Source of the DNA: Minisyncoccota bacterium
Lineage (GTDB): Bacteria > Patescibacteriota > Minisyncoccia > Phycocordibacterales > UBA9973
NCBI GenBank assembly: GCA_041907605.1
Contig: JAYRGZ010000005.1
Location: forward strand, 1 to 48,859
Length of the DNA: 48,859 nt
Direction: 5' to 3'
Shown here: positions 17,536 through 39,023 of the stretch, in pieces
Layout: each line of letters opens with the position of its first letter
Numbering within the stretch: the stretch's first letter is position 1
Translations under genes and position numbers: made by a program
Notes under the pieces: model-generated
The model's database searches: none
Seen by the model: only the letters and a program-made list of their open reading frames with translations
Told to the model about the DNA's origin: nothing

Positions 17536-20061
17536 ATGGCACAAAATCCCTTACGAAAAAGATTAAAACATAACATACTCCTTTTTATCACTGGAGGTTT
17601 TTTTCTTGTTTGTGCTGTAATTATAATCTGGCTTTCGTCACTGACCGTTCCAGATTTAAAGTCTTTTGAGGACCGCCAGATCGCACTTTCAACAAAAATT
17701 TATGATCGTACTGGTGAAATCGTATTATACGACCTACATCAGGACGTGAAGCGTACGGCTATACCTTTTAGTGATATGGGTAGCTATATTAAAAACGCTA
17801 CCGTAGCAATTGAAGATAGTGAGTTTTACCAGCACAACGGTATTAGACTCACTTCCATATTTAGAGCAATACTTGCAAACCTCACCTCTGCATCGTTCTC
17901 ACAAGGTGGTTCTACTATCACACAACAAATTGTAAAGAATGCGTTGCTAACAAATGAAAAGACAATTACACGTAAACTAAAAGAATGGGTCTTGTCACTA
18001 AAGATTGAGCGAGTTTTATCTAAAGAAGATATCTTGTCACTTTATTTAAACGAATCTCCGTATGGTGGAAACATTTATGGTATAGAGGAAGCATCTCAAA
18101 CGTTTTTCGGTAAACACGCAAAGGACCTATCGTTGCTTGAGGCAAGTTATCTTGCTGCTATTCCTCAAGCACCAACATATTACTCCCCATATGGAAAAAA
18201 TTTGGATAAATTAGAGGAAAGAAAAAATTTAGTTCTTTCAAGAATGAAAGAATTACATTTTATTTCAGACAGTGAGTATGACGAGGCAAAAAAAGAAACG
18301 GTTGTTTGGAAACCACAGGAAGCGAGAGGAATAAAAGCTCCACATTTCGTATTTTTCATTCGTGATTATCTAGCAGAGAAATATGGTGAGGATGCACTTA
18401 TGGCTGGTGGACTTAAAGTAATTACTACTCTTGATTACGATATGCAACAAAAAGCAGAGCAAACCGTAAAAAAATACGCCTTAATTAATGCCCAAAAATA
18501 TAAAGCTACTAATGCAGGATTAATAAGTATTGATCCAAAAACAGGACAGATTTTGGCTATGGTTGGATCACGAGATTACTTTGATAAAGAAATTGATGGA
18601 GCTTTCAATATTACTACCGCCAAAAGACAGCCCGGTTCGTCTTTTAAACCTTTTGTATACGCAACGGCTTTCATGAAAGGATATACTCCTAATACTGTGC
18701 TCTTTGACGTACCAACAGAGTTTAATCCCGGATGTAATCCTTATGGAAAAAGTTATGGTAGTACCAATCAAAAAAATTGCTACATGCCCCAAAATTTCAC
18801 TGGTGAAAATAATGGTCCAATGACATTGCGTAATGCCCTAGCACAATCGATAAACGTGATAGCAGTTAAAATGCTCTATCTTGTGGGCATTGATGATTCA
18901 ATTAAAACAGCGGAGGATATGGGAATACGAAGCCTTGGTACAGCAAAAGATTATGGTCTAACTTTAGTGCTTGGAGGAGGAGAGGTTCGTCCACTTGATA
19001 TGGCAAGCGCTTATGGTGTATTTGCAAATAGTGGTATAAGAAACCCCGCAACAGGAATTTTAAGGGTTGAAAATAAGGACGGCGATGTGCTTGAAGAATA
19101 TCAAGACAATAATGGAGGTGAGGTTATACCTAAACAAATAGCACTACAGATAAACGATATTCTATCTGATAATGATGCAAGAGCACCTATGTTTGGTAAG
19201 AAATCAAATCTCTATATTGAGGGTAGACAGGTGGCAGTAAAAACTGGTACTACCAACAGTTATCGTGATGCTTGGATAATTGGTTATACACCATCGTTCG
19301 TTACCGCAATATGGGTTGGTAACAACGACAACACTCCCATGGCAGACAAAGCATCCTCAACGCTCTCAGGTCCTATGTGGAACGAATATATGAGAGCTGT
19401 ACTTCCTAAATATCCAAATGAATCATTTGAGAAACCAGCTCAAATAGCTGGGTATGAAAACCTAAAGCCCGTTCTTCGTGGTATTTGGCAGGGTGGGGAG
19501 AGTTTTGTAGTAGATAAAATCTCTGGACTCCTTGCAACAGAATTTACCCCAACAGAAACCAGAGACGAAAAAGTTATCTCAAACGTTCACGACATACTTT
19601 ATTGGATAAATAAGGATGATCCACTTGGTCCATCACCGACCGATCCTAAGCAAGATCCACAATTTAATAACTGGGAAACTGCTGTTCAAAACTGGTGGTC
19701 CTCTCATGCTTATCTATATCCTCAAAACTCTCCAATAAAACCTACAGAGTACGACAATATTCACACAGAACAATCTAAACCACAGATTATTATTCTTTCT
19801 CCTATTGATTCATCGTCTGCAGGAATAAATTCTCAGATAACAGTTTCTGCAACAATGTCTGGACAATACCTGCCCCAGAAAATGGATGTTTTTGTGAACG
19901 GTAATTATGTTGGTACTTCAAATAACTATCCCTTTAACTATTCTTTCACACCCAACGAATTGTCTGGAATTAACCCTGGTGACAACCTTGAAATAAGAGC
20001 TGTCATATATGATTCTGTTTATAATCAAAATGAATCTACTGTAAATGTTTCCGCCGAATAA
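17536..20061 (+). CDS. ponA: Class A penicillin-binding protein (glycosyltransferase plus transpeptidase)
   Basis: N-terminal TM segment, GT51 motifs (EDSEFYQHNGI, GGSTITQQ), and transpeptidase motifs SSFKPF (SxxK) and KTGTT. Confidence 0.95.
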   Translation: MAQNPLRKRLKHNILLFITGGFFLVCAVIIIWLSSLTVPDLKSFEDRQIALSTKIYDRTGEIVLYDLHQDVKRTAIPFSDMGSYIKNATVAIEDSEFYQHNGIRLTSIFRAILANLTSASFSQGGSTITQQIVKNALLTNEKTITRKLKEWVLSLKIERVLSKEDILSLYLNESPYGGNIYGIEEASQTFFGKHAKDLSLLEASYLAAIPQAPTYYSPYGKNLDKLEERKNLVLSRMKELHFISDSEYDEAKKETVVWKPQEARGIKAPHFVFFIRDYLAEKYGEDALMAGGLKVITTLDYDMQQKAEQTVKKYALINAQKYKATNAGLISIDPKTGQILAMVGSRDYFDKEIDGAFNITTAKRQPGSSFKPFVYATAFMKGYTPNTVLFDVPTEFNPGCNPYGKSYGSTNQKNCYMPQNFTGENNGPMTLRNALAQSINVIAVKMLYLVGIDDSIKTAEDMGIRSLGTAKDYGLTLVLGGGEVRPLDMASAYGVFANSGIRNPATGILRVENKDGDVLEEYQDNNGGEVIPKQIALQINDILSDNDARAPMFGKKSNLYIEGRQVAVKTGTTNSYRDAWIIGYTPSFVTAIWVGNNDNTPMADKASSTLSGPMWNEYMRAVLPKYPNESFEKPAQIAGYENLKPVLRGIWQGGESFVVDKISGLLATEFTPTETRDEKVISNVHDILYWINKDDPLGPSPTDPKQDPQFNNWETAVQNWWSSHAYLYPQNSPIKPTEYDNIHTEQSKPQIIILSPIDSSSAGINSQITVSATMSGQYLPQKMDVFVNGNYVGTSNNYPFNYSFTPNELSGINPGDNLEIRAVIYDSVYNQNESTVNVSAE

Positions 20062-20064
20062 AAA

Positions 20065-20325
20065 TTAATTAATATCTATAACAATCTTTTCCCCCGCTAT
20101 CGTATTTATTTTATCTATTATTTTATTTTTTTTTAAAAAAAGTTCCTGTTTTTTTATTGCAGTCAATTTTATTTTCAAAACCCCCTCTTTAATAGAAACA
20201 TCTTTAGTTTCAACAAAGGGAATTTGATCCTCTAATACGCTTTTTATTATTTCAAAGTTTCTTAGTTGGTTAAAAACTTTTTTATTTTTGTTTGATAAAA
20301 ATTTTATAATATGCCCATTATCCAT
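20065..20325 (-). CDS. DUF721/DciA-like small protein downstream of dnaN
   Basis: 86 aa. GVLKIKLTAIKKQELFLKKNKIIDKINTIAGEKIVIDI fits the DUF721 pattern, and the position immediately after dnaN is typical. Confidence 0.45.
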   Translation of the reverse strand: MDNGHIIKFLSNKNKKVFNQLRNFEIIKSVLEDQIPFVETKDVSIKEGVLKIKLTAIKKQELFLKKNKIIDKINTIAGEKIVIDIN

Positions 20326-20326
20326 A

Positions 20327-21424: not shown

Positions 21425-21622
21425 ATATAAAAATTTATTATTACTACTAGTGGTGTGTATAAGTGTATAAGTCTTGATAATTGATTTATATAAGGATTTT
21501 TTTGCATATTATTTTTTTTATTATGTTAATAAAAAATTTTATTTTCTCTTTCGTTTTAAAAAATTATTTTTCTAATAAAACTTATTAACAAATTAAAAAT
21601 TAATATACATATTAATTCACAA
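21425..21622. other. Candidate oriC segment / DNA unwinding region (dnaA-dnaN intergenic)
   Basis: 198-nt extremely AT-rich spacer. It holds overlapping near-consensus DnaA boxes TGTGTATAA (21454-21462) and AGTGTATAA (21462-21470), plus two 2-mismatch boxes near 21582-21590 and 21613-21621. Confidence 0.5.
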
Positions 21623-24577: not shown

Positions 24578-25054
24578 ATGAATCAGGAGAAAATCCAAAA
24601 CATAATAATGGATTTTATTGCAAAAAGTGGCCTACATAACCGCGAGGTACTTTTTGAGCTTTCAGAAGACGGCAAGACTCTTTGGTGCAAAATGTATTCT
24701 GATGATGGACATCTATTAATTTATAAAAACGGAGAAGCACTGGCCTCAATTAATCACATAATCCACAAAATTATTGAGAAAGAAATTGGAGAAGGAGAAG
24801 ATCCAGGGATCTCTGTAATTTTTGATGTAAATAATTTCCAAAAGAAAAAAGTTGATAGCTTGAAGACAATTGCTCACATGATGGCAGAACGAGCGCGCTT
24901 CTTTAAATCCAGCGTCGAGGTGGATCCTATGCCACCATTTGATCGAAGAATAATTCATGAGTTTCTATCTGAGATACCAGACATCGAAACAGAATCCACT
25001 GGTGTGGGTCCACATCGACGTGTTGTTATAAAATATCGCGATACCACTATTTAA
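24578..25054 (+). CDS. jag: Jag/KhpB-like RNA-binding protein (KH plus R3H)
   Basis: C-terminal R3H-type motif (PPFDRRIIHEFLSE...GVGPHRRVVI). Position after yidC is conserved. Confidence 0.8.
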   Translation: MNQEKIQNIIMDFIAKSGLHNREVLFELSEDGKTLWCKMYSDDGHLLIYKNGEALASINHIIHKIIEKEIGEGEDPGISVIFDVNNFQKKKVDSLKTIAHMMAERARFFKSSVEVDPMPPFDRRIIHEFLSEIPDIETESTGVGPHRRVVIKYRDTTI

Positions 25055-26406
25055 TTAGCCGGAGAAACTACTGGTTCTTCTATCGTAGGCGTTACCCTTA
25101 AGTCGTATTCCCAAAGAATACTGCTTTTTTTATCCACAAAAAACAAGTATGAAAGTGTTGGATCAACTTGGAGTTTTGTACCGTCAACAGTGGTACCCGT
25201 AATACTTGAAGGATTAAACAATACATTAGTTGTTATACTATCCCCTATTGTTATTTTCCAAAAAGAATCATTAAAACCTACAAGGCCCTGGTACCAACTA
25301 TCTGGATAAATACCAGGAGATAGTGCATCAGGTACAGCACAAAATACTGCGCTACTATCTGCTACCCAAACACACTTTTCAGGAAGTGTTTTTAATCCAA
25401 TATTTGTAGTAATTCTTGTGGAAATATCGTATACGTATGTTTCAATTGTATTTCCTGTCGTTTGTGAGTATAAAACCTTTTTCCCGTCTGGTGAAACAAG
25501 AGTTGTCAGTCCATAAATATCACCAAGCGTACGGACATTGGATTTTGTAGTTGTGTCTAATATATATAAATAACCAGTACTGTAACCCGATGCTTTTGTT
25601 GTGAGAGCAACTTTTTTGGAATCAATCCACTGTGATAACCATTCATAATAGGGTGATGTGAACACATCTATTTTTTTTGTTCCGTCAATATTTGCAGTGC
25701 TGCCGACGACATTTCCCGTTAAATAAGAAAGATAAAATATTTTTTTGGAGTCCGGAGAAACACTCAAATCCAAAATATTCTGAGGCAAAAAAGATCCAGA
25801 AAGTTCTAGATTTTGTTCTACTAAACCCAGAGTGTCTTTTGGAATATTTGCGAAGTATGTATCGATTGTTTTATTGTCTTCATCCAAATACCTTAGAAGT
25901 GTTTGTGTGGCTGAGTTGCCATAAAAAGATTCGTAAACTCTAGGAATTGTTGTATTCGTTATACGAGAATCTTTTAATGTATCAGCAAAAATATCAAAGA
26001 TATTTGCTGTAGCTTTTTCTCCGTATCTTACAGCTAAAACCTTCTCTGTTTTAGGTACACTTACAGTAGATGTACCCTGATCCACGGTCACTTGTGGTGT
26101 TGTCTCAATATATCTTTCCTTATCAAAAATTACATATCCAGAAACTGGATTATTAGATAGCTGGTGAAGTTTTACAACCTCAGGCGTAGGTTCTGGCTCT
26201 GGTGTTGGCTCTGGTTCTGGAGCTGGAGTCGGTTTATTTGCTTCGTCTATCTCACCCCCTTTCCCGAAAGGAAAAAAATCTTTGAGCGTAGTTGCTACAT
26301 TGCCAGTATCTGTACCATTTTTTTGAGAAAAAAAGTAAAAATATGTACCGATTCCTAAGATTAGTATAAGTATAATTATTAATATGAGAATTAATTTTCT
26401 AGACAT
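25051..26406 (-). CDS. Membrane-anchored beta-propeller-like protein (TolB/PD40-like repeats), T4SS-like locus gene 10
   Basis: N-terminal TM segment (LILILIIILILILGIG), PEPEPTPEPEPTPE linker, and repeated SPD(S/G)KK(I/V)(F/L)Y motifs. Confidence 0.6.
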   Translation of the reverse strand: MSRKLILILIIILILILGIGTYFYFFSQKNGTDTGNVATTLKDFFPFGKGGEIDEANKPTPAPEPEPTPEPEPTPEVVKLHQLSNNPVSGYVIFDKERYIETTPQVTVDQGTSTVSVPKTEKVLAVRYGEKATANIFDIFADTLKDSRITNTTIPRVYESFYGNSATQTLLRYLDEDNKTIDTYFANIPKDTLGLVEQNLELSGSFLPQNILDLSVSPDSKKIFYLSYLTGNVVGSTANIDGTKKIDVFTSPYYEWLSQWIDSKKVALTTKASGYSTGYLYILDTTTKSNVRTLGDIYGLTTLVSPDGKKVLYSQTTGNTIETYVYDISTRITTNIGLKTLPEKCVWVADSSAVFCAVPDALSPGIYPDSWYQGLVGFNDSFWKITIGDSITTNVLFNPSSITGTTVDGTKLQVDPTLSYLFFVDKKSSILWEYDLRVTPTIEEPVVSPAN

Positions 26407-26408
26407 TT

Positions 26409-27497
26409 TTACTGAATGATCACTTTTATACCACTAAACATGTATGGGGCGAGTAATACTAGATCATCGTTGAACATTCTAATACATCCATTTGTTGTTC
26501 CCAAAGTATTGTTTTGGTTTGAGTGAAATCCTATAGAACGATTTACACCACCCAGGGTTATGCCTGTATTTATAAAGGCTGCTCCAAAATTATAATATGA
26601 ATCACTATATGCTAATACCCCACTGTTTTGATCCTTTGCTATACGCCGGTCGCTTGATATATAGCTTGTACCCTTTGGAGTTCTGCTATCACCTAAAGAG
26701 GGTTTTGGGCTACCGTTTGGGTCAGATACTCCCTTGTACCCAATGTTTATTGGCACAGTTACTGTTTTTACCTCAGTCCCTTTTATTGCATGAAACAGTG
26801 CTTTATTTGATGCGCTATTAGGAGCGACAGCGGTAATTGTTATTGTATCGATTTTTCCACCGCTTTTTAAGAAATCTGAAAAATCACTAACACCCGTACT
26901 TGCTTGTGGGCTAGTGAAAGAGCCCTTCATCGCAAAAGGGTTACCAGAATTACCAGTTGAAGAAGGTAGGGTCCCGTTTACGGGTGGGTTTTGTGCCATT
27001 TGTTCTGTAAATTTATAATTTGTCTCATCTAAATTAACCACTATGTTTTGTGGGACAACAGAAGAAAAATTAATATCAAGTAGGTGTGGATTTATGGTGT
27101 TAAGAATTAAATATGCTCCTAAGGCTAGAATTAATCCACCCACAGCCCTAGTTACGGTTTCCTTACCTCCCTCCTTGCCTGATACGGCGTCTGTAGACAT
27201 ATATTGTACTCCACCCAAAATTATCATTATCACAGCCAGGATACCTATAATCCCCATTATTATTTTAAATATTGTTTTTATATATCCAGGCAAGTCGTTT
27301 AGATCAATCTGTGTAATATCACTTCCCCCATTTGGGTTCGGTAGTGGCTCCAGTAAACAGTATTGTCCATCAGGACAATTTACAGTAGACGATGGTTGTG
27401 GAGTTTGTGGTGTAACTGTTTGGATTTGAGCAGAAACAATCGTATAGCCAGCAAGTAGTTGTATAAAAAATGTAATAATTATTATGAATTTTTTCAT
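26409..27497 (-). CDS. Fusion protein: signal peptide plus VirB2/TrbC-type T4SS pilin-like two-TM module plus C-terminal YkuD L,D-transpeptidase-fold domain
   Basis: Pilin-like region: LLEPLPNP...IKTIFKIIMGIIGILAVIMIILGGVQYM...AVGGLILALGAYLILNTINPHLL. YkuD signature: TPKGTSYI ... IGFHSNQNNTLGTTNGCIRMFNDD, with GCIRMF encoded at about 26472-26489. Confidence 0.65.
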   Translation of the reverse strand: MKKFIIIITFFIQLLAGYTIVSAQIQTVTPQTPQPSSTVNCPDGQYCLLEPLPNPNGGSDITQIDLNDLPGYIKTIFKIIMGIIGILAVIMIILGGVQYMSTDAVSGKEGGKETVTRAVGGLILALGAYLILNTINPHLLDINFSSVVPQNIVVNLDETNYKFTEQMAQNPPVNGTLPSSTGNSGNPFAMKGSFTSPQASTGVSDFSDFLKSGGKIDTITITAVAPNSASNKALFHAIKGTEVKTVTVPINIGYKGVSDPNGSPKPSLGDSRTPKGTSYISSDRRIAKDQNSGVLAYSDSYYNFGAAFINTGITLGGVNRSIGFHSNQNNTLGTTNGCIRMFNDDLVLLAPYMFSGIKVIIQ

Positions 27498-27498
27498 C

Positions 27499-28491
27499 TT
27501 ATTTTAAATTAATTTTTATTATCTCTTTACTTGCTTGGAATAATTTTGAAATATTCTTTATTTCAAGCGAAATATCTGATACACCTACACCACCACTCTT
27601 TATTGTCAGAATATTTTTTGTTTCAGGAACTGGAATAACTGAGTTGTTAATTTTCCATGTATATTGAAGGTCTCGAGACAACTTATTGCCCGGTGAAAAG
27701 AAAAATGGTTCTGCAACAATGGTCTTTTCACCACTATCTATTAAAAAACCATTCTCCAGAGTCTTTTCGTATTTTATACCAAGGAGAGGATCTTTCTCGT
27801 AGAATAGGATTTTGGGAGTGTAAGGTTTTAGATTTATTGTTTTTTTTGCAACACTACCCGTTGTTGTGTTTGTAGCCACAACACTGAATTGTTCTATTGG
27901 ATTAAGATAATTTAGTTTTATATTGATACTGTTTTTGTTATACCCAGAGGCGTCTTGTAAACTATTAAAATTCTTTTTCCAATTGTATATGACACCGCTT
28001 TGTTGTGTAGATGTAGAAAATACAGGCATGGCAACTATTTTAATAATACCCTCTGAACCCGGTAATGATTTACCACGATAAAATGGTGGCACTGTAGAAT
28101 CGATTGCTTGCCACAAGAGATCTACCTGGGATGGTTTAATTATTATTTGTTTTGAGAGAGAGCTTGAGCCAAAAACTATCTTGGCTACCACTGTCTTAGA
28201 TGCCCCAGGCCCAGGAGCGTCTAGGCTAAATTGTTTCGCCCCTACACCCGCAAGGGCAGAACTACCATTAACAATCCAAGTTATTGTTGCATTATTTAGG
28301 TCAATAGCGTAACTGACTAGTTTGATTGTTACACTTTTATACGGTTCAGGTACGTCTGGAACAGTTTCAATAGCGATATCTGATTGCACCAACTGAGCTA
28401 GTGCCAAATAAGGATAAGTATATAGTGATAATATTACTATTCCGAAAAAAAAGAGCTTCTTTACTTTGTAGATGAAAGACCATAGTTTCAT
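27499..28491 (-). CDS. Exported beta-rich protein with three internal Ig-like repeats (hypothetical), T4SS-like locus gene 8
   Basis: Signal/anchor KKLFFFGIVILSLYTYPYLALAQ. Recurring ...(T/N)W(I/K)(V/K/I)N... segments occur about 95 aa apart. Confidence 0.6.
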   Translation of the reverse strand: MKLWSFIYKVKKLFFFGIVILSLYTYPYLALAQLVQSDIAIETVPDVPEPYKSVTIKLVSYAIDLNNATITWIVNGSSALAGVGAKQFSLDAPGPGASKTVVAKIVFGSSSLSKQIIIKPSQVDLLWQAIDSTVPPFYRGKSLPGSEGIIKIVAMPVFSTSTQQSGVIYNWKKNFNSLQDASGYNKNSINIKLNYLNPIEQFSVVATNTTTGSVAKKTINLKPYTPKILFYEKDPLLGIKYEKTLENGFLIDSGEKTIVAEPFFFSPGNKLSRDLQYTWKINNSVIPVPETKNILTIKSGGVGVSDISLEIKNISKLFQASKEIIKINLK

Positions 28492-28533: not shown

Positions 28534-30369
28534 CTATTTACCAGTTGTTGCACTCTCTAAATCCTCCTTTGCTTTTTTGATTGCAAGGATCTGTGAAGGA
28601 TCCGATGTGATTATTTGTTCTTCTGTGTACGATGCTATGATTTTTATTGCTACGTGTTTTAGTCCTGCAAAGAATATTCCCTCACCCACACCAGATTCAA
28701 GCAGAAGATATTTTTCCTCGTCTGTGAGATGAAAGGTTTCTTGAACCTTATCAATCGAACTTGGAGATTGCTTAAGAAGTATCTGAATTGATGAGTTTGT
28801 CACAATTGGCACACCGTACTGGCTTTTCATGAAGTCGTCGATATTTTGAGTAATTGTAGATAGTCCCAAATAATATTTTCTACCACGTTTAGCAATACTA
28901 TAAAGAAATGATGCAGTATCCTCAGACTTCATCATAATCCAAGCCTCATCCACTACTAAAAGTCGCTTCTTTAGGTTTTTTCTTATTGCGTTCCAAATAA
29001 AGTGAGTAACAATATACATTGCTACGGGTTTCAATTCATCCTCCATGTCACGAATTGAAAAGACAATTAGTTTCTTATTGATGTCTACATTTGATGGCTG
29101 ATTGAGAAACGTTGCCCAAGATCCCTTGGTGTACTTTGATAGTCTCGCTAATATTGAATCTGTTCCCTGCATACCAGCTAGTACCATTTCCAAATCAGAG
29201 AGAAGCGGTGGCTCAATATTAGAAAAGTCAGACTCGGGAGTTATATCTTTCAATGCATACGTTTCAGATATTGCTCTATCAATCACCGAATCTTCTTCTG
29301 GCGTAAGACCCCCGAGCATTATACGAAACAATCCCACAAGACTTATGACGTTTGAGCGAAGTACATCAGCAGCAGTTTCATCCTCTCGTGGCATTGGCAG
29401 ATCGAAAGGATTTATATGATGATCTGATGAAAGAGCAATGTTGAAGTATCTTCCTCCTACTGCTTCTGCTAAATATTCGTATTCTCTTTCGGGATCAATT
29501 ACTATTACGTCCGTATCAAACATAAGAGTTCTCAAAATCTCTAATTTAGTAGTGAAGGATTTACCTGATCCAGAGGTTGCAATTGTAACTGAATTGTAAT
29601 TTTCTAGAGAGAAACGATCGAAAATAATTAAGGATGAGTTGTGTCTGTTTATACCATATAGAATTCCCTTGTCTGAAGTAAGGTCAAATGAAACAAATGG
29701 GAAAATTGAGGATAATGGTTCAGAATTTAGTTTCTGATGGACGTTTATCAGGTCTGTTCCAATTGGTATTACACTCTTTAAACCATCTTCTTGTTGGAAT
29801 AATGCTGGTTTTAGATAAACAAGTTTTGCCTCAAGGATTGATTTGATCTCGTTCTCCGTTTTGTATAGTTCCGTCTCATTGTCAGCATAGATTGTAATAT
29901 AAAGTCCAACATCAAACATTTTCTCTTGAGCTTGTTGTAGTGAGTCACGAAGAGATTCTAGATCACGAAAAGCAGTATCAAGCATTGGATCACGCACTAG
30001 GCCTTTTGATTCACGTACATTAATCTGACTTTGAACTTCCGCAACTTTTTTCTGGAACTGTCTGAGTATCTTTGTGGTCTCAATAGGATGAATAAATATT
30101 GAAACATCAAAAATTTTATCCAGATTAATAATAGGTGAAAACCAATTATCTGATAGAAATCTTGGATATGAAATAACGAAGAATGTACGAGCGAGTTTGT
30201 CTCCTAGGTTTAGCGTTTTAGGCTCAACCCTTATTGCAGATGGTGCAATGATATCGCGGAACTCAAGTGTAGCCGCCTGGTAGATCTCTGATGGTAATAC
30301 AGGTAAAATTCCCTCAGTACTTCCACTTTTCTTTTTCTTTCCCCCAAATAATGAATCAAATATTCCCAT
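28534..30369 (-). CDS. virB4: VirB4/TrbE/PrgJ-family type IV secretion ATPase
   Basis: The N-terminal domain RDIIAPSAIRVEPKTLNLGDKLARTFFVISYP is typical of Gram-positive VirB4. Walker A TIATSGSGKSF is at about 29556-29582. Walker B is RLLVVDEAW. Confidence 0.9.
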   Translation of the reverse strand: MGIFDSLFGGKKKKSGSTEGILPVLPSEIYQAATLEFRDIIAPSAIRVEPKTLNLGDKLARTFFVISYPRFLSDNWFSPIINLDKIFDVSIFIHPIETTKILRQFQKKVAEVQSQINVRESKGLVRDPMLDTAFRDLESLRDSLQQAQEKMFDVGLYITIYADNETELYKTENEIKSILEAKLVYLKPALFQQEDGLKSVIPIGTDLINVHQKLNSEPLSSIFPFVSFDLTSDKGILYGINRHNSSLIIFDRFSLENYNSVTIATSGSGKSFTTKLEILRTLMFDTDVIVIDPEREYEYLAEAVGGRYFNIALSSDHHINPFDLPMPREDETAADVLRSNVISLVGLFRIMLGGLTPEEDSVIDRAISETYALKDITPESDFSNIEPPLLSDLEMVLAGMQGTDSILARLSKYTKGSWATFLNQPSNVDINKKLIVFSIRDMEDELKPVAMYIVTHFIWNAIRKNLKKRLLVVDEAWIMMKSEDTASFLYSIAKRGRKYYLGLSTITQNIDDFMKSQYGVPIVTNSSIQILLKQSPSSIDKVQETFHLTDEEKYLLLESGVGEGIFFAGLKHVAIKIIASYTEEQIITSDPSQILAIKKAKEDLESATTGK

Positions 30370-30370
30370 A

Positions 30371-31018
30371 TTATTGTGTTGGCACTTTTATTGATCCGGT
30401 AGTTTCTCCAGGATTAAATATTTTATAGAATAATTCTATTGCCTCCTCGGTTCCTAGCTGTACCGTGCGTACTCCTACACGGGATAACCCCTGTTGAACT
30501 ACACCGATACGCTGTTCAAGTTGGGTACGTTTTTCCTCAAATTCATATATGCTGTCTTTTTTCTTCTCCTCTGTTTTTTGTTTTGAGCCGAAAAGCCCTT
30601 TGCTTATTGTTCCTTGTGTGGATAGTGGTGCTGCGCTATATGGAACCACAACAATAAAACTTTTTGTCATTATTGCTACTTGGTCTGTAAAGTCACGAAT
30701 AAACCCCATGTATTCTTTTGTTTGCACCTTCAATAGTGGTTCTGTGAGCTCTTTTAGCCTACCCTCTAGCAAAATTAAATAAGGTCTAATGTCTAATCTC
30801 CGTGACTCCACAACAATTTGAACAGAAAAATCCAACGAATTCAAAAATGTTTGAAATTGTGCAAGTGTTGCGTTTTGCTCGTCAAAGGATTTTAAAGATA
30901 AATTTACAGACGAGGCAAGCAGAAGAGCACGCATACTACCATCTTTTAGTATTACAATTCCATCGCGGACTTCTTTTATTGGTACAAAGTCTTGTGTTGC
31001 AGAAGCGCTAATTGCCAT
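30371..31018 (-). CDS. T4SS-associated protein resembling a free-standing VirB4 N-terminal domain (hypothetical)
   Basis: QDFVPIKEVRDGIVILKDGSMRALLLASSVNLSLKSFDEQ...FSVQIVV recalls the N-terminal fold of Gram-positive VirB4-type ATPases. No NTPase motifs. Stop is 1 nt before virB4. Confidence 0.4.
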   Translation of the reverse strand: MAISASATQDFVPIKEVRDGIVILKDGSMRALLLASSVNLSLKSFDEQNATLAQFQTFLNSLDFSVQIVVESRRLDIRPYLILLEGRLKELTEPLLKVQTKEYMGFIRDFTDQVAIMTKSFIVVVPYSAAPLSTQGTISKGLFGSKQKTEEKKKDSIYEFEEKRTQLEQRIGVVQQGLSRVGVRTVQLGTEEAIELFYKIFNPGETTGSIKVPTQ

Positions 31019-31047: not shown

Positions 31048-31464
31048 CTAACCCTTTTTTTCTACATCTAATACATCTAAACTCCAGGATATATCCTTTA
31101 GTTTTGAAGAAGATAATTTTGGAATATAATTTTCAACAGGAGATTCTTGTACCGCTGTCTGTTTTTTCTCATCGTTTTTCTTTACTTTACGCATTTTCCA
31201 TACATATAATTTTGACTGAAACAAATAGACAAAATATGATTGAAGGATAAAAACAAAAGGCTTCCCATTCACTTTATAAAAAGTTAAAGCACCGGCTAGA
31301 CCTAAGACCGGTATTATAAGTGGGATAGCTATAAATATTGGTAGAGTTCTGTATAAAACAAAAGCGCCGCCAGCCCCACCCAGAAGATAGAGAAATTGTT
31401 TAAAAGAGAAAGGGCCGAATATTTTGTCTTCTATATCAATGAATTGAGGAACCTGAAATTGCAT
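31048..31464 (-). CDS. PrgI-family (VirB3-like) membrane protein
   Basis: MQFQVPQFIDIEDKIFGPFSFKQFLYLLGGAGGAFVLY plus a second TM segment. This pattern and the position upstream of VirB4 match PrgI/VirB3 analogues. Confidence 0.65.
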   Translation of the reverse strand: MQFQVPQFIDIEDKIFGPFSFKQFLYLLGGAGGAFVLYRTLPIFIAIPLIIPVLGLAGALTFYKVNGKPFVFILQSYFVYLFQSKLYVWKMRKVKKNDEKKQTAVQESPVENYIPKLSSSKLKDISWSLDVLDVEKKG

Positions 31465-31489: not shown

Positions 31490-31526
31490 CCATATAAAGA
31501 ACCGCTTAGAGCGGTTCTTTATATGG
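31490..31526 (-). terminator. 16-bp perfect hairpin overlapping the stop codon of the 251-aa gene (intra-locus terminator or RNA stability element)
   Basis: CCATATAAAGAACCGC-TTAGA-GCGGTTCTTTATATGG. The TAA stop (31506-31508 on the minus strand) lies in the loop. No clear U tract follows on the minus strand. Confidence 0.5.
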
Positions 31527-32261
31527 ATCACTACTTTTCTGCGAAGGATTTACGGGTGGTGTTGGTGTATAAGTCGTTTCTTTTTTGGGCGTACTCACTA
31601 TTCCACCTAGTTTATCTCCTACAATATTTCCAGTACTTGGTGCTGTCGGTGGGGTTGGCATGTTTTTCATAACTCCAGGTGCAGGTGGTACCGGTATTGT
31701 CGGGGTGGTTGGTGTTGTTTGTTTGATTGGATTTAGTATCACCGGCTCGCTCTTAGGCGGATTTTCTATACCACTTATAGCATCTAGACGACTTTCAATA
31801 TTAGCAGGCGCTTTTGTCTCAGTATTACTCTCTATAGAGATACCAGCTTTCGCAAGAATTTGTGTTCCAGTGTCTGTTGGTTTTGTTTCTGTTCCTCGTG
31901 GTGCTTCTGTGTTTGCTTTTGCCTCGTATACTTTTTTTAGGGACTCTCTTATTGGCACAAAGACTTGATCACTAATATCTTTCACTAATCCGTCAATCAT
32001 TTTATCGTCATCAATTTTCAACTCCACCTGCAATTCATCTCTGAAATCATCTGGAGGAGTCATACCTAAAAGCACCATTGTTGTCTCTAATTCAATTGTA
32101 CCCAACTGCTCGTATGTTAGTTTGTTTTTCTTTGCTATTTCGTATAGTTTTAGCTGGTACTCGCTCGAAGTAATGACACCCTGTATGTCTTCGGGAAGTA
32201 GAGAGAAACGTTTTTGCATTTCTATTTTTACATCTTCAAATTGGTCTTGTTCTTCTGCCAT
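31506..32261 (-). CDS. Hypothetical protein with acidic N-domain and Pro/Thr-rich C-terminus, T4SS-like locus gene 4
   Basis: 251-aa ORF with no signal peptide. The C-terminal half is rich in P/T (PTTPTIPVPPAPG...). Confidence 0.55.
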   Translation of the reverse strand: MAEEQDQFEDVKIEMQKRFSLLPEDIQGVITSSEYQLKLYEIAKKNKLTYEQLGTIELETTMVLLGMTPPDDFRDELQVELKIDDDKMIDGLVKDISDQVFVPIRESLKKVYEAKANTEAPRGTETKPTDTGTQILAKAGISIESNTETKAPANIESRLDAISGIENPPKSEPVILNPIKQTTPTTPTIPVPPAPGVMKNMPTPPTAPSTGNIVGDKLGGIVSTPKKETTYTPTPPVNPSQKSSDPYKEPL

Positions 32262-32295
32262 ATATTAGTTTTATTATATCATGCACATTATTTTT

Positions 32296-35019
32296 TTAAT
32301 GATGTCCACCACCCCCACCATGATCGCCCCCATGGGAATCGTGTCCACTACTACCACCGCCCCCGCCACTACTTTTACCAAAACCCTTAAAAGCGTCAAA
32401 GAACTTACTAACAGGAGGTTTGTATTTTGAATTTACACTATGAATTTTGTGTGTATCATCGCTTGCAATATGTACCCCCTCAGAGAAAATTTTACCACCA
32501 GCTAAATCAGTGTTTAGCTTTAGGTTGATTCCAGGTACTGTAGCTGTGTCAATTCTCCTTCCTAGGTCTTTAAACATACCTTGCATAGGTTTTAGAACTC
32601 CGCCGTGTAAAGCCCCACCGATTGAACCTACCAAGGCTCCCGCCAATGCTGTTGGTATTGCTGTTACTCCACCAGCTATTCCAGCGGCTCCACCGACAAT
32701 TGCACCGCCCTTCATCCCCTGTACCACAGCACGTGTGAGTCTCCTCATATATCTCTCAGTCTGTAGACCATTAGTCGATGCCACGTCAGTGTTTACATGA
32801 CCAAGTCTATTTACGTTACCAAACTGATCTCTCGTCTCTCCATGATACTCGTAACCACTCTTTTTCATTTGTGAAGAGAAGTATTCTTTTGCGCGAGCCT
32901 TCTTTATGTTTTCTACGGCCTTTTCATTTTGTGCAATTGTACCCTCGTAATTTCTTTGTTGTAATCCTGGTACAACACCTGTATCACCGCCGTTTTTAAT
33001 ATGTTCCACATAAGTATTTACTCCACTAATTTGTGCATCTATCGAATCGATTCTTCTTCTTGCTGTTATCGCGGCTGGAGACCCAGGATAACCCATATCT
33101 TTTTGATTTTGAACAATTTGATTTTGTTCCTGTCTTTCTTGTTGTAATCTCGTCTTTAAATCTTGAGCTGTTTCAACATCTCGTTTTCTCGTATCAAGTT
33201 CCTCGCTATGTTGACGGTATTCCTCTTCGTTGTGTCCAAGTAGTTCTGTAAATTTCCTTTCTTTTTCCGCTTGTCTTGCAGTTGCACCAGCTACACCACC
33301 GGCAAGATTTCCTGTGGCAAGCTTACCGAAGCCTCCGGTGTTTATACCCGTAGCGTTACTAAATGCTTGCCCAGCACCAGTCTGTCTTAGATCAAAGCTC
33401 CTATTAGCATTTTTCTGAGCAGTAAGTAATTTATTTTTTGCACCCGCTTGCATTCTCTGGAATTCCGCAGAATTTTTGATTGCATCATCGTTACCTAAAT
33501 GACCTAACTGTGCACGAGTTTGTGCCGTAATTCTTCCCGCCGCAGTGTCTTTGAGACCCTCGTCATTTAATGTTTTCTGAGCCCTGCCACCTATGATTCT
33601 TTGTGCACCAAGAGCAATTCCACCTGTTGCGACCCCAAGAGCGAGTCCAGCTCCGGCACCGAGTACTGCACTACCAGCCTTAACTGCCATTTCCCCAAGT
33701 TGGCCGGAACCTTTTTTGGCATATTCCACCGCTTTCATTAATAGCCCAAGTACTATTAACATAGGTATTATCACAAGCAATATTGTTTGTAACCAACTTA
33801 GGCCCTGGTTGTTGGGGTTTAGTAATGCCAGGAGGCTTCCTTTTGAAAGCATGGCAATTATATACATGAAGAACATGAAAATTGGTGCGGCAAATGCTGT
33901 TGAGAATAGTTTTTTCCACCAACCCTTCCAGTTCATCTCGTCCCCCAGAGAGCCAAAGGGTATTATGTATGTTACAAAAGCAAGTGGAGCAAATATTATA
34001 AGTATCCAAAGCTGGATTAATCTACCCAAGAAACTAAGCCCGGCTATGAAAAATGCCCAAGCAGCGTATGCAAAGATAGCACCGCTTACAAGAATTATAG
34101 AAATTAAAATAGGGGCTGGTACAGAACTCGATTGTCCCGCTATGATTGTTGTCGCTAAAAATAAAGGGATACCAATAACAGCACCAACCCCCGTTGCTGT
34201 CAATGCAGCACCAACAGCCGCGCCACCGATGAGTCCATTTGTAACATTAAAATCTTGTTCCCTATACTGATCCAAAAATTTTGAAGAACCTAATATTTGT
34301 GGTTTGAAAGAACTAGTCACTAATCCGCCAATGTCTTTTTCTTTTACGCCAGTTATATTTTCATTTATTATTGGTTCGTATTGGACTGGTTTTATTGTAC
34401 CGTTAGAGTTTACATTGGTCGTTAGACTTATCTGGTTATAAAACAGAAGAGCCAAAGAATTTGATGCATCTATGATGACCCTCGTAATAAAAAAACTAAA
34501 GTTAATAAATAAGGCAATTATGATAACCGATGCCAGCATTTTTTTTGTATTCACACTATGTAGTTGAAGAATAGTTCCAATTGCAATATACAGCAGAATA
34601 AATATGAACACTATATTTGCCATGTCTCTAACTAATCCCCACCCAAAAACCAGAAAATTTTCCGCTGCTGCGTATAGCTGGGAACTTAGTGTGAGGCCAG
34701 CAAGGGCATTAAAGAAATTTGCGCTTACGCCCAGGAGCCAAGAAGGAAATGAATAGAAGATATAGTATAAGAGCAAAACAACACAGTCGGTAAAGTTTGC
34801 CCTTATTATAGATTCACAACCAATACTATCTAATAAACCATTTTGAGAACTATCTGAAGTACTGGATGTGGAGGCTGGATTGTTGCTCCCCTCAGTGTTT
34901 ATGGTCGCATCTGGACCACCAACTGATATTGTATCTGCGTGAGTAGTATTAAAACCCAAAGGGGCGAAAACCCCTGTGAGTATTAATGCTATGAAAAATG
35001 TGACGATACTTTTTTTCAT
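32296..35019 (-). CDS. VirB6/TrbL-like polytopic membrane protein with ~430-aa C-terminal extension and Gly/His tail
   Basis: A signal peptide is followed by at least 8 hydrophobic segments (residues ~80-470), as in Gram-positive VirB6 analogues. After these come Gly-rich and coiled segments, and the protein ends GGGGGSSGHDSHGGDHGGGGGHH. Confidence 0.55.
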   Translation of the reverse strand: MKKSIVTFFIALILTGVFAPLGFNTTHADTISVGGPDATINTEGSNNPASTSSTSDSSQNGLLDSIGCESIIRANFTDCVVLLLYYIFYSFPSWLLGVSANFFNALAGLTLSSQLYAAAENFLVFGWGLVRDMANIVFIFILLYIAIGTILQLHSVNTKKMLASVIIIALFINFSFFITRVIIDASNSLALLFYNQISLTTNVNSNGTIKPVQYEPIINENITGVKEKDIGGLVTSSFKPQILGSSKFLDQYREQDFNVTNGLIGGAAVGAALTATGVGAVIGIPLFLATTIIAGQSSSVPAPILISIILVSGAIFAYAAWAFFIAGLSFLGRLIQLWILIIFAPLAFVTYIIPFGSLGDEMNWKGWWKKLFSTAFAAPIFMFFMYIIAMLSKGSLLALLNPNNQGLSWLQTILLVIIPMLIVLGLLMKAVEYAKKGSGQLGEMAVKAGSAVLGAGAGLALGVATGGIALGAQRIIGGRAQKTLNDEGLKDTAAGRITAQTRAQLGHLGNDDAIKNSAEFQRMQAGAKNKLLTAQKNANRSFDLRQTGAGQAFSNATGINTGGFGKLATGNLAGGVAGATARQAEKERKFTELLGHNEEEYRQHSEELDTRKRDVETAQDLKTRLQQERQEQNQIVQNQKDMGYPGSPAAITARRRIDSIDAQISGVNTYVEHIKNGGDTGVVPGLQQRNYEGTIAQNEKAVENIKKARAKEYFSSQMKKSGYEYHGETRDQFGNVNRLGHVNTDVASTNGLQTERYMRRLTRAVVQGMKGGAIVGGAAGIAGGVTAIPTALAGALVGSIGGALHGGVLKPMQGMFKDLGRRIDTATVPGINLKLNTDLAGGKIFSEGVHIASDDTHKIHSVNSKYKPPVSKFFDAFKGFGKSSGGGGGSSGHDSHGGDHGGGGGHH

Positions 35020-37269: not shown

Positions 37270-37282
37270 TTTTTAAAAATTA

Positions 37283-38222: not shown

Positions 38223-39023
38223 TTATTTGCCTTTATGTGAATTAAAAACCTTTGCGAGCAAAAGCCAATGTTTTAACTCTAATTCTTCTGCTCGAATTGT
38301 CGGTGATAAGTGGTTTTTCTCCCAAAAATCCTCAATTATTTCCTTAGAAACCACTTTTTGCAGATTATTTTTTAAAACCTTTCTTTTATGCCCGAAGCCA
38401 GCGTGTAAAATATCGAAAAAGACACTTTCTATTTTTGGATCCAATTTCTTGCTCGATATATTATCAACCAGAAGTATTGCAGAATCCACACGAGGTTCGG
38501 GGGAGAAATATCTTTTAGGTACTTTATCAATATATTTGGGATCACCATATGCCTTCACTGACATTGAAAGAATGCTTTCCCTGCCGTCACGTGCGACAAT
38601 TCGTTCCGCCACTTCTTTCTGTACAAGTAAGACAATTTTTTCTGGTTTTGTTTTTCCCGATAAAAACTTTCTAATAATTGCTCCTGTAATGTAATACGGT
38701 ATATTTGCAACTAATTTGTATTTCTTTTTCTCTATTCCAATTTCTTTCAGATCAAGGTCTAAAATATCCCCTTCGATTAAAATTAGTTTTTTATTTTTAA
38801 TTTCCTTTTTAAATTCCTCTTTTAGTATTGGAATTAATTCCCTATCTTTTTCTACTGCTACAGCCCGTGCCCCAGTATCAAGTATTTTTCGAGTTAGTGC
38901 TCCTTTACCCGGACCGATTTCAAGCACTAGATCAGTTGGTAGTACACTTCCAGTATTAACAATTTTTTTTAGTACACTTGTAGATTTCAAGAAATTTTGT
39001 CCAAGAGATTTTTTGGCTTTCAT
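38223..39023 (-). CDS. rsmA: 16S rRNA (adenine1518/1519-N6)-dimethyltransferase
   Basis: KKSLGQNFL signature, the SAM-binding motif VLEIGPGKGALT and NIPYYIT. Confidence 0.92.
   Translation of the reverse strand: MKAKKSLGQNFLKSTSVLKKIVNTGSVLPTDLVLEIGPGKGALTRKILDTGARAVAVEKDRELIPILKEEFKKEIKNKKLILIEGDILDLDLKEIGIEKKKYKLVANIPYYITGAIIRKFLSGKTKPEKIVLLVQKEVAERIVARDGRESILSMSVKAYGDPKYIDKVPKRYFSPEPRVDSAILLVDNISSKKLDPKIESVFFDILHAGFGHKRKVLKNNLQKVVSKEIIEDFWEKNHLSPTIRAEELELKHWLLLAKVFNSHKGK

Follow-up and report, generated by a model that had tools for sequence, protein, structure and literature searches.

What does a peptidoglycan enzyme do on the end of a T4SS pilin-like protein? This question is raised by one open reading frame (ORF) in a 48,859-nt stretch of DNA from a Minisyncoccota bacterium, called the window here. 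In a preliminary description made from the sequence, the ORF was read as a VirB2/TrbC-type pilin module continued by a YkuD catalytic domain, a combination for which no described component was known. The ORF bounds are as given there, and all of the motifs listed (CPDGQYC, two hydrophobic helices, TPKGTSYI, IGFHSN and TNGCIRMFNDD) are present. Literature searches agree with the claim of novelty: in open-access full text and bioRxiv, we found no paper in which a YkuD domain or LD-transpeptidase is joined to a T4SS component or a pilin. Features of the ORF and of its surroundings are collected in Table 1.

Table 1. Features of the fusion gene and of the surrounding locus (window coordinates; residues are those of the fusion protein unless a gene is named).
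Feature	Coordinates	Strand	Remarks
Fusion ORF, pilin-like module + YkuD	26409..27497 (including stop codon)	-	starts with ATG and runs uninterrupted for 362 aa
Predicted N-terminal signal peptide, residues 1-23 (MKKFIIIITFFIQLLAGYTIVSA, followed by Q)	27429..27497	-	hydrophobic segment 3-25; model helix 2-22
CPDGQYC segment and YxLL(E/A)PLP motif, residues 41-65	27303..27377	-	predicted beta-hairpin before TM1
VirB2-like two-helix membrane hairpin, residues 66-135	27093..27302	-	PF18895 at residues 73-134; model; hydropathy
Flexible linker, residues 136-189 (~55 aa)	26931..27092	-	pLDDT 41-72
YkuD-fold catalytic domain, residues 190-362, predicted extracytoplasmic	26412..26930	-	PF03734; pLDDT >90; Foldseek; 1y7m profile match
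His325, codon CAC	26523..26525	-	aligned with His123, the catalytic His in B. subtilis YkuD
Cys338, codon TGT, predicted catalytic nucleophile	26484..26486	-	aligned to YkuD Cys139
Arg340, codon AGA	26478..26480	-	aligned to YkuD Arg141
p451, downstream partner	25051..26406	-	start 2 nt past fusion stop
p330, exported upstream partner	27499..28491	-	stop 1 nt before fusion start codon
VirB4-like ATPase, CD1110 family	28534..30369	-	NF045971, 392 bits vs cut-off 325; PF19044, E=2.4e-28
Separate VirB4 N-terminal / TraC-like domain ORF	30371..31018	-	PF26593 in orthologues
PrgI (VirB3-like)	31048..31464	-	PF12666, 36.3 bits vs cut-off 27
p251 and 907-aa polytopic membrane protein (VirB6-like candidate)	31506..35019	-	upstream part of conserved locus
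KsgA	38223..39023
PBP1a	17536..20061		orthologues in related loci

A joining of two separate genes, through a frameshift or a chimeric contig at the stage of assembly or gene calling, was considered as an explanation of the ORF. The reading frame is uninterrupted, and the identical 362-aa protein is encoded on 11 contigs. Both parts occur together in 23 of the 103 word-indexed homologues (25-58% identity), in about 110 of the 150 top-ranking cluster representatives of an exhaustive profile search, and in 19 species-representative genomes. In all, 491 genome hits were obtained, and 1,296 representatives with E<=1e-30. The survey for recurrence in homologous loci that had been proposed earlier thus disclosed over 100 separate clusters, defined at 50% identity, that carry the same fusion; they come from NCBI, JGI, ENA and Logan assemblies that are independent of one another. 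Because so many clusters carry it, the fusion is not a frameshift artefact; a chimera is ruled out on the same grounds, so far as sequence data can tell, and the probability left to such an origin is negligible.

The assignment of the C-terminal part to the YkuD family held in all comparisons. Judged against curated gathering scores, YkuD (PF03734) is found at residues 252-361 (E=2.4e-7, 31.9 bits, cut-off 23.4). The divergent N-terminal half of the domain was missed by Pfam and is covered by the confident fold of the AF2 model, in which pLDDT exceeds 90 over roughly residues 190-362. When this domain was compared with PDB structures in Foldseek, the top 27 matches were all L,D-transpeptidases (probability 0.87-1.0), with a best E of 8.5e-4, target-normalised TM-scores of at most 0.38 and rmsd of 6-8 Å. 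A profile comparison matched the domain to B. subtilis YkuD (1y7m; E=6e-6) and brought its catalytic His, Cys and Arg into register with those listed in Table 1, which settles the question of catalytic alignment in favour of the earlier reading. His325, Gly337, Cys338 and Arg340 are invariant across 21 homologous fusions.

Compared with B. subtilis YkuD (1Y7M), LdtMt1 and LdtMt2, the domain has the same His/Cys/Arg constellation and fold, at ~15-18% identity in structural alignments. Many Ldts have S/T-H-G-C at the catalytic motif. LdtMt2 has S-H-G-C and YkuD S-K-G-C, whereas the fusion has T-N-G-C, and a His-to-Cys spacing of 13 residues against 16 in YkuD; since B. subtilis YkuD itself carries S-K-G-C, T-N-G-C lies within the variation of the family. 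In contrast to these enzymes, the fusion is without a LysM or Ig-like N-terminal domain and has a pilin hairpin instead.

For the N-terminal module, the pilin part of the proposed VirB2/TrbC-type assignment stands on a match to T4SS_pilin (PF18895; residues 73-134, E=5.5e-7, 30.0 bits, cut-off 26.6), while the specific TrbC/VirB2 family (PF04956) stayed below its cut-off (E=0.014, 16 bits vs 27.9), as did the NCBIfam Mbov_0395 pilin-like model (21.8 bits vs 40). The layout is that of a pilin, comprised of a signal peptide, two hydrophobic helices and a short charged loop. Kyte-Doolittle hydropathy gives hydrophobic segments at residues 3-25, ~69-105 and 114-136, and the AF2 model a hairpin of helices 66-101 and 105-135, in which TM1 is followed by the charged loop STDAVSGKEGGKETVTR and by TM2 with an NP.LL junction at its end. 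In front of the hairpin, the model places strands at residues 45-52 and 61-65; in the YxLL(E/A)PLP motif of this segment, Tyr46 is invariant and Leu49 and Pro51 are at least 90% conserved among 21 homologues. Cleavage of the signal peptide is predicted after residue 23.

Position in the genome also corresponds to that of a pilin gene, with virB4 two genes upstream and prgI farther upstream. The protein departs from a small stand-alone subunit (mature ~70-130 aa) in its C-terminal extension of ~225 residues, and tails of 80-350 aa are present on all 103 word-indexed homologues. The linker between the two parts had been estimated at ~110 aa; this value has to be corrected to ~55 aa, given the low pLDDT of residues 136-189 and the confident fold from about residue 190. 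When every six-frame ORF of 40 aa or more in the window was searched with a pilin-module HMM, the fusion was recovered with E=5e-40, followed by a match with E=0.37, and hence no second pilin-like ORF was found. The sole VirB2-like protein of the locus thus forms one molecule with a predicted peptidoglycan enzyme.

The flanking genes p330 and p451 lie so close to the fusion, at 1 and 2 nt, that one operon is suggested. No Pfam match was obtained for p330, and a PDB search gave weak Ig-like matches; p451 has a TM at its N-terminus, followed by a Pro-rich linker and a beta-propeller of TolB type (profile match to TolB 6pnv with E=1.8e-5, and weak PD40/TolB matches). The T4SS setting that had been proposed is borne out by the VirB4-like ATPase, with the TraC-like ORF and PrgI directly upstream (Table 1). 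The VirB6-like candidate has a weak Mbov_0396 match and orthologues placed in the same way in related loci; the orthologue of locus L003 carries TrbL_3. The T4SS genes adjoin dnaA, dnaN, rnpA, yidC and jag. In five related loci (L001-L005) the order PrgI - TraC-like - VirB4 - p330 - pilin-X - p451 - (jag, yidC, rnpA, dnaA, dnaN, PBP1a) is maintained, X being the C-terminal part. Across 85 species-level loci, p451 was found in 81, p330 in 79 (in each directly upstream of pilin-X), VirB4 in 75 and DnaA in 66, and the slot for pilin-X between virB4 - p330 and p451 is fixed in about 80.

Patescibacteria T4SS loci have been described as MPF-FATA-like and located near dnaA/dnaN/rnpA/ksgA (PMC12102498). 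Neither a relaxase nor a coupling protein is encoded in them, and in the single species examined so far, epibiotic growth requires the system (PMC10633639, PMC12102498). The window agrees with this description in its monoderm-type VirB4, PrgI and oriC-proximal genes, and no Pfam match to a T4CP or relaxase was obtained among the window ORFs scanned. Judged by gene content, the fusion gene is thus confirmed as part of the known Patescibacteria T4SS locus adjoining dnaA. The presence of PBP1a indicates that the organism makes peptidoglycan, and no other wall-hydrolase domain was detected among the neighbouring window ORFs. When the fusion and the genes beside it were scanned against PHROGs, no match and hence no link to phages was found; an Rfam scan of the window found a single tRNA and nothing else.

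Comparison of related loci further revealed that X in the pilin-X slot is an interchangeable cassette, which is exchanged among at least nine sequence families. For this comparison, 25 residues were trimmed from the tails before clustering, in order to exclude a post-TM2 linker common to YkuD tails and to those of a family named unk20. The slot is occupied by YkuD (19), NlpC/P60 (10), VanY of the VanY/M15 type (7), SLT (3) and unclassified tails (19), and five tail families without an assigned domain amount to 29 (13, 7, 6, 2 and 1). In three of the 85 loci it is filled by a bare pilin of 128-156 aa, indicating that an enzyme is either not universally needed in the slot or is supplied elsewhere.

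Replacement of tails was observed between species in which VirB4 is 97-99.7% identical, and a tail family is shared with the nearest VirB4 neighbour in only 27 of 70 loci. As an illustration, the loci L008 and L054 have VirB4 proteins 99.7% identical and DNA 93-94% identical on both sides of the slot, and their difference is confined to the last ~190 codons of pilin-X, in which YkuD and VanY tails show no similarity. The tails diverge ~10 residues past TM2, and the exchange reaches as far as the start of p451, a gene that is ~94% identical across the swap and is present whatever the tail type. The closest relative of the window protein (P0004) is 77% identical to it over residues 1-176 and continues into an unrelated tail. 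Among homologues, the exposed N-terminal region is variable and the hairpin is conserved.

These patterns bear on the reading of the protein as a housekeeping L,D-transpeptidase, whose two-helix anchor resembles a pilin and whose proximity to the T4SS is incidental. Relatives are named "L,D-transpeptidase family protein" at NCBI, the region is rich in housekeeping genes, and the sub-threshold PF04956 score would fit as well; against it speak the PF18895 match above its curated cut-off, the conservation in most loci of a slot flanked by p330 and p451 and close behind virB4, the bare pilins that fill it in three species, and an enzyme domain that is freely exchanged on a hairpin that stays. We therefore regard this reading as very improbable.

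From what is established here on its domains and catalytic residues, on its locus and conserved slot, and on the exchange of cassettes, the fusion is probably the peptidoglycan-processing subunit of its locus, an analogue of VirB1/PrgK tethered to a VirB2-like subunit. It is a conserved component of the chromosomal, oriC-proximal T4SS of a Patescibacteria (Paceibacteria-type) bacterium. Behind the signal peptide, the hairpin would sit in the membrane with the T4SS, or as part of it, in an N-out / loop-in / C-out topology that would leave the ~55-residue linker and the YkuD domain outside the membrane, in the wall. Cys338 would act as nucleophile and His325 as base, with Arg340 taking part in substrate or oxyanion binding. 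The enzyme would attack the L,D bond between position 3 and D-Ala4 of tetrapeptide stems, and the resulting thioacyl intermediate could be resolved by hydrolysis of the stem (L,D-carboxy- or endopeptidase) or by re-linking. The substrate may be the wall of the producer, that of the host, or both. The fusion would thus be a counterpart of VirB1/PrgK/TraG/CwlT that is held at the machine by a pilin-like subunit and not by a simple TM anchor; its enzymatic end is a modular cassette, and relatives place NlpC/P60, VanY/M15, SLT or other tails on the same module.

Classical wall hydrolases of T4SSs have domains of NlpC/P60 or SLT type. The predicted wall-remodelling role of the fusion is strongly supported by comparative data, because pilin modules in the same slot elsewhere carry NlpC/P60, SLT or VanY/M15 domains. 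VirB1 (Agrobacterium), PrgK (pCF10), TraG (pIP501), CwlT (ICEBs1) and TcpG are likewise encoded in T4SS operons and are exported or membrane-anchored with a wall-active domain, and their SLT and NlpC/P60 types occur as sister cassettes in the slot of the fusion. The fusion itself differs from them in a catalytic domain of YkuD fold (Cys/His, L,D-specific) instead of SLT, lysozyme or CHAP/NlpC-P60, in an anchor that is a VirB2-like hairpin and not a single TM helix, and in an enzyme end that is exchanged between close relatives. The known set of wall enzymes in T4SSs would in this way come to include one of YkuD fold.

The classical activity of YkuD enzymes is synthetic (3-3 cross-linking, protein anchoring) and not lytic, so that breaching of the wall is not what they do by default. 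The domain could accordingly be a true L,D-transpeptidase which forms 3-3 cross-links around the channel or attaches a T4SS or pilus protein to peptidoglycan, in the way that E. coli ErfK/YbiS/YcfS attach Lpp. The full transpeptidase catalytic set is present, transpeptidation is the classical activity of the family, and relatives are annotated at JGI as "lipoprotein-anchoring transpeptidase ErfK/SrfK". However, the NlpC/P60, SLT and VanY-type domains of the same slot act on peptidoglycan by cleaving or trimming it and are incapable of cross-linking or anchoring; their occurrence there points to cleavage or trimming as the common function, unless function differs from one cassette to another. 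A synthetic or anchoring role is therefore considered unlikely.

The wall-processing role also agrees with what has been described in other Patescibacteria. In Southlakia epibionticum, the genes that directly follow virB4 proved essential in Tn-seq, and the domains that they encode are of DD-peptidase, lysozyme-like and Cys-peptidase type (PMC10633639 supplementary tables; PMC12102498). Two of them, SEML1_0007 and SEML1_0006, occupy the same place relative to virB4 as the fusion and have C-terminal wall-enzyme domains (Hedgehog/DD-peptidase in the former, lysozyme-like and Cys proteinase in the latter), but they are much larger (1113 and 643 aa), have no pilin or YkuD domain in the published tables, and the Southlakia pilins are separate genes. 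These PF18895 pilins (SEML1_0014-0019; PMC10633639, PMC12102498) share with the fusion the signal peptide, two helices, charged loop and virB4 neighbourhood; they are ~130 aa, stand-alone and often in arrays, whereas the fusion has an enzymatic extension of ~225 residues and is the sole pilin-like ORF in the window. A survey which counted pilin and VirB1 functions separately concluded that pilus biogenesis needs no VirB1, and found VirB1-like matches linked to virB4 mainly in Paceibacteria (PMC12102498). This bias fits pilin-enzyme fusions, in which the two functions are linked. The role of the Patescibacteria T4SS is called completely unknown in reviews. The loci described here provide a definite list of parts, open to testing, for the class with the most species (Paceibacteria-type loci), and a handle on how ultra-small epibionts deal with cell walls.

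Precise swaps between near-identical loci are unusual for a housekeeping assembly factor and suggest that the protein interacts with a partner that varies, for instance the host. The enzyme may act on the host cell wall. In its full form, which we put forward tentatively and consider less probable than not, the pilin-like subunit would be the carrier of polymorphic host-directed wall-editing enzymes: the hairpin would polymerise as a minor or tip subunit of an extracellular filament or channel tip, the enzyme would edit or open host peptidoglycan at the contact site, and recombination at the NP.LL junction would tune it to the wall chemotype of the host. The exactness of the L008/L054 replacement, the rarity of a tail family common to nearest VirB4 neighbours, the unrelated tail of P0004, and a variable exposed N-terminal region on a conserved hairpin are all in favour. 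Both termini of the pilin face outward in conjugative pili (VirB2/TraA pilus structures). The requirement of the T4SS for epibiotic growth, in a system with neither relaxase nor coupling protein, points in the same direction (PMC10633639, PMC12102498). On the other side, no pilus has been demonstrated in these organisms, a globular domain of ~25 kDa per subunit may clash with helical packing of pilins, no obvious major pilin is encoded near this sole pilin-like ORF in 48.9 kb, and a tethered enzyme would be permanently beside the producer's own wall.

The exchange of C-terminal enzymes at a sharp junction behind a constant N-terminal delivery module is a feature of polymorphic toxins and "evolved" effectors (CdiA-CT, Rhs-CT, LXG, evolved VgrG/PAAR), and is seen here both in the L008/L054 pair and between P0004 and the window protein. 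Unlike in those systems, no co-varying downstream immunity gene is swapped along with the tail, p451 being retained across the L008/L054 swap; the carrier is a T4SS pilin-like protein, and the identifiable tails are wall enzymes, not nucleases or pore-formers. The missing tail-specific immunity gene speaks against a pilus-displayed, host-directed effector, yet with cassette turnover of this kind a role directed at the host is still plausible. A precedent is the T6SS effector Tlde1/Tlde1a, in which the same LD-transpeptidase fold is recruited by a secretion system for peptidoglycan modification, as a secreted anti-bacterial wall effector acting as LD-carboxypeptidase/exchange enzyme (PMC9638812). 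Tlde1 is a soluble cargo delivered into rival periplasms and has an immunity protein, Tldi1, whereas the YkuD domain described here shares one polypeptide with a T4SS pilin-like membrane protein, with no immunity gene evident at the locus. Should host walls be the substrate, the type of tail could be read from the genomes of uncultured CPR bacteria as a marker of their host range. If the pilin is indeed the carrier of such enzymes, the two would form an effector system borne on a pilin and free of immunity genes, and one of the molecular factors that determine the host range of CPR bacteria.

A function could be assigned to about half of the tails, and it is thus not established that all of them are wall enzymes. 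The second-largest tail family, unk20, which includes P0004, has an invariant Cys/His/Asp pattern (TGGTECWxH..HGPG..VD...HWH), from which we would guess an LAS/M15-type zinc peptidase. No supporting match was obtained in Pfam at E<=1, with a profile against PDB sequences, with an AF2 model in Foldseek, or by hhalign against the VanY, SLT, NlpC and YkuD tails. Other tails gave only sub-threshold hints of SLT (P0078, E=0.0034; P0091, E=0.047). Several of these conserved tail domains without a known fold are candidates for new wall-active enzymes.

The 362-aa reading frame located in the preliminary description was confirmed, with an ATG start and no interruption, and its single polypeptide joins a VirB2-like hairpin to a YkuD (L,D-transpeptidase) domain with a complete catalytic set. 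In Pfam, T4SS_pilin (PF18895) matches residues 73-134 with 30.0 bits against a gathering score of 26.6, and YkuD (PF03734) matches residues 252-361 with 31.9 bits against 23.4. The proposed pilin assignment thus holds for PF18895, above its curated cut-off, but not for the classical TrbC/VirB2 model PF04956, which remains sub-threshold (E=0.014). Hydropathy indicates a signal-peptide-like segment (residues 3-25) and two membrane helices (~69-105 and 114-136). An AlphaFold2 model built on 21 homologues contains a helical hairpin (66-101/105-135), a linker of low confidence (136-189) and a C-terminal domain whose fold is predicted with confidence (pLDDT >90 from about 190 to 362), the N-terminal half of which is divergent and missed by Pfam. 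The linker is therefore of ~55 residues instead of the ~110 estimated before. With the signal peptide cleaved, the topology would be N-out, loop-in, C-out, which would make the enzyme domain extracytoplasmic.

Across 21 aligned fusion proteins (25-58% identity), residues H325, T335, G337, C338, R340 and N343 do not vary, and neither does the upstream block D270/T273/P274/G276. The profile of this alignment matches Bacillus subtilis YkuD (1y7m, E=6e-6) and places H325, C338 and R340 on His123, Cys139 and Arg141, known from the literature as its catalytic residues; the putative catalytic His/Cys pair is thus aligned to that of a characterised enzyme. The motif is T-N-G-C in the fusion, whereas it is S-K-G-C in B. 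subtilis YkuD, where the His-to-Cys loop is three residues longer, and S-H-G-C in mycobacterial Ldts. In a Foldseek search of the full model against PDB, the top 27 matches are all L,D-transpeptidases (probabilities 0.87-1.0), including LdtMt1, LdtMt2 and Ldts of M. smegmatis, A. baumannii and M. abscessus, with modest E-values (best 8.5e-4) and loose superpositions. Every available sequence and fold test points to the YkuD family, and the combined evidence from alignment and predicted model makes this assignment sound.

A word-indexed search returned 103 homologues, each of which has the pilin module with a tail of 80-350 residues. Their sources are without exception metagenomes or MAGs that bear the label Paceibacterota/Pacebacteria, Nomurabacteria or Patescibacteria. 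Both pilin and YkuD modules are present in 23 of the homologues. An exhaustive profile search through 1.84 billion cluster representatives gave 1,296 matches at E<=1e-30; among the best 150, roughly 110 cover both parts of the profile. When a single genome was scanned for each GTDB species, 491 relatives were found. Because the frame is intact and the architecture recurrent, a frameshift joining two genes is not borne out, and the probability of an assembly or gene-calling artefact is negligible. Two cluster representatives of 612-618 aa (P0202 and P0206) have four separate pilin-module matches each, i.e. tandem pilin hairpins.

The window lies on a Patescibacteria chromosome and encodes PolA, RuvB, TyrRS, PBP1a, DnaN, DnaA, RnpA, YidD, YidC, Jag, KsgA and UvrD. 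Its minus-strand gene string encodes a 907-aa polytopic membrane protein, p251, PrgI, a TraC-like ORF, VirB4, p330, the fusion and p451 (p-names give protein length), with gaps of 1-2 nt on either side of the fusion, the only pilin-like ORF in the 48.9-kb window. PrgI (VirB3-like) is above cut-off, and VirB4 belongs to the CD1110 family (392 bits against a cut-off of 325). VirB4 is split also in related loci, where a PF26593 ORF lies directly upstream. For p330, Pfam gave no match and PDB sequences gave only weak Ig-like ones. p451 combines a TolB-like beta-propeller (profile against TolB 6pnv, E=1.8e-5) with a TM helix at its N-terminus and a Pro-rich linker, and is a possible wall-spanning or wall-binding partner. 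In one related locus (L002), PrgI and the TraC-like ORF are separated by an inserted 115-aa gene of 23S_rRNA_IVP/bAvd type; bAvd proteins occur alongside diversity-generating retroelements. The locus is the T4SS near oriC, lacking a relaxase, that Quinonero-Coronel et al. 2025 (PMC12102498) described for Patescibacteria, and this system is essential in Southlakia (Wang et al. 2023, PMC10633639). Both papers deal with VirB2-like pilins separately from VirB1-like hydrolases, and neither mentions YkuD or a pilin-enzyme fusion.

Coordinates of features in the window and in related loci (L-numbers)
Feature	Location	Strand	Remark
DsbB-like disulfide oxidoreductase	window 1669-2202	+	PF02600 above cut-off
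T2SSE/PilB-type ATPase	window 11116-12879	+	PF00437, E=1e-111
Low-GC segment	window 20001-22000		across dnaN/dnaA
p451	window 25051-26406	-	directly downstream of pilin-X gene
Pilin-YkuD fusion	window 26409..27497	-	
p330	window 27499-28491	-	directly upstream of fusion
VirB4 ATPase	window 28534-30369	-	
TraC-like ORF	window 30371-31018	-	VirB4 N-terminal domain, separate from VirB4 ATPase
Large ORFs	window 35038-38182 and 40996-45750	-	743, 299, 1584 aa
bAvd-type gene	L002 6148-6495		
Bare pilin	L026 5911-6294		
Bare pilin	L064 4188-4598		
Bare pilin	L034 1056-1523		
Second pilin-X gene	L010 8315-9364		
Second pilin-X gene	L005 11098-12120		

The position in the T4SS operon is fixed, while other peptidoglycan-active domains replace the enzyme end. 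Six contigs fetched by exact protein identity (L001-L006) share the same gene order, always with a pilin-like protein between p330 and p451; its tail is YkuD in L001, L002 and L003, NlpC/P60 in L004, SLT in L005 (with a second pilin-like gene next) and VanY/M15 in L006. We then scanned 86 loci with one HMM for the pilin module and one for every tail family, and used the proteins encoded beside the fusion in the window as phmmer queries. A pilin-module ORF is present in 85 of these loci, alongside p330 (79/85), p451 (81/85), VirB4 (75/85) and DnaA (66/85). Counted per pilin-module ORF, five loci carrying two, the tails are YkuD (19), unk20 (13), NlpC/P60 (10), VanY (7), unk3a (7), unk7 (6), SLT (3), unk3b (2) and unk4 (1), "unk" marking families without assigned function; 19 are unclassified. 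Three ORFs are bare pilins of 128-156 aa, each in the slot of a different species, so the hairpin can occur by itself. Second in frequency among the cassettes, unk20 (~200 aa; e.g. proteins P0004, P0022-P0025 and P0028-P0031, loci L021, L024 and L043), has invariant Cys/His/Asp residues (TGGTECWxH..HGPG..VD...HWH) and no relative detected in Pfam, PDB sequences, Foldseek or hhalign; it is a candidate new wall-active or metal-binding domain. Second pilin-X genes (pilin module with tail X), found also in L022, L056 and L059, include an extra pilin-SLT after p451 and a pilin-unk7 right after pilin-SLT, and may be reservoirs for cassette exchange.

Exchange is evident between close relatives. Of 70 loci compared with their nearest neighbour by VirB4, only 27 agree with it in tail family. 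The swap is seen most clearly between L008 (YkuD) and L054 (VanY), with VirB4 99.7% identical. By blastn, they share 93% identity over L008 22-6364 and 94% over 6939-10577, with no similarity in between; this gap coincides exactly with the final ~190 codons of the fusion gene, and identity returns at the p451 start. The proteins are alike through ...FTINPQLLDVSLSG(V/I)PQA and then unrelated, the L054 tail having VanY-type motifs (SRHESGLAFD ... EPWHW). The same pattern was observed for L050 (NlpC/P60) and L038 (unk3a; VirB4 identity 99.0%), and for L077 (VanY) and L010 (YkuD and an extra pilin-SLT gene; 97%). The pattern extends to the window's own lineage: P0004 is 77% identical to the window's fusion over residues 1-176, with a near-identical hairpin, and unrelated beyond. 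The eight loci nearest to the window by VirB4 (81-85% identity) carry unk20, VanY, YkuD, SLT or unclassified tails.

Such sharp, recurrent turnover is unexpected for a housekeeping assembly factor, and it fits the main rival reading, in which the enzyme acts on the host cell wall. The exposed N-terminal region is variable while the hairpin is conserved, and variable ends would fit a surface element meeting something variable, most obviously that wall; the pilins of known conjugative pili have their two termini on the outer face. As points against a toxin directed purely at the host, no gene exchanged together with the cassette was found in the compared locus pairs, so no immunity-like partner is evident. 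Moreover, the enzyme would sit permanently beside the wall of the cell that makes it, the window has no major pilin close by, and a ~25-kDa tail on every subunit is doubtfully compatible with filament packing. We regard host action as possible, though less likely than not.

The simplest function common to the cassettes is local wall processing for the secretion machine, which we consider probable. SLT and NlpC/P60 are domains used by VirB1, PrgK, TraG and CwlT. The VanY/M15 cassette matches, on a pilin module, the DD-peptidase fold of an essential Southlakia gene adjoining virB4 (PMC10633639). Both likenesses argue for such processing. The hairpin would dock the enzyme in or at the T4SS membrane complex, where Cys338/His325 would attack the L,D bond of tetrapeptide stems. 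By analogy with the partner cassettes, a hydrolytic or trimming outcome (L,D-carboxy- or endopeptidase), of which an L,D-transpeptidase fold is capable in Tlde1a (PMC9638812), appears more consistent than cross-linking. A synthetic or anchoring Ldt role is accordingly unlikely and an incidental housekeeping Ldt very improbable; these, like the artefact, rank below action on the host.

The fusion would work like known T4SS wall enzymes but has YkuD in place of SLT or CHAP. By profile and architecture it is a PF18895 pilin, yet not a small stand-alone one, and it shares modularity with polymorphic toxins but not their immunity gene. Database names of relatives ("L,D-transpeptidase family protein", "lipoprotein-anchoring transpeptidase ErfK/SrfK", "pilin") each describe half of the protein. 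The T4SS locus and both domains have been described before; what is new is that a pilin and a wall enzyme are physically joined, that a T4SS makes use of a YkuD fold, and that the tail is polymorphic. As the preliminary description supposed, no YkuD-pilin T4SS component was found in the open-access literature, nor was the cassette behaviour.

Elsewhere in the window, the DsbB-like oxidoreductase fits the many conserved Cys in exported T4SS-locus proteins, and the T2SSE/PilB-type ATPase presumably belongs to a type IV pilus system distinct from the T4SS. The large ORFs have no family match except one bacterial TSP3 repeat in the 299-aa ORF. The 299/743 pair may belong to the T4SS locus, as both here and in L006 it has KsgA-UvrD on one side and the VirB6-like gene on the other. 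Across dnaN/dnaA, GC falls to 0.278, against about 0.36-0.38 on average in the window, which is consistent with a nearby oriC.
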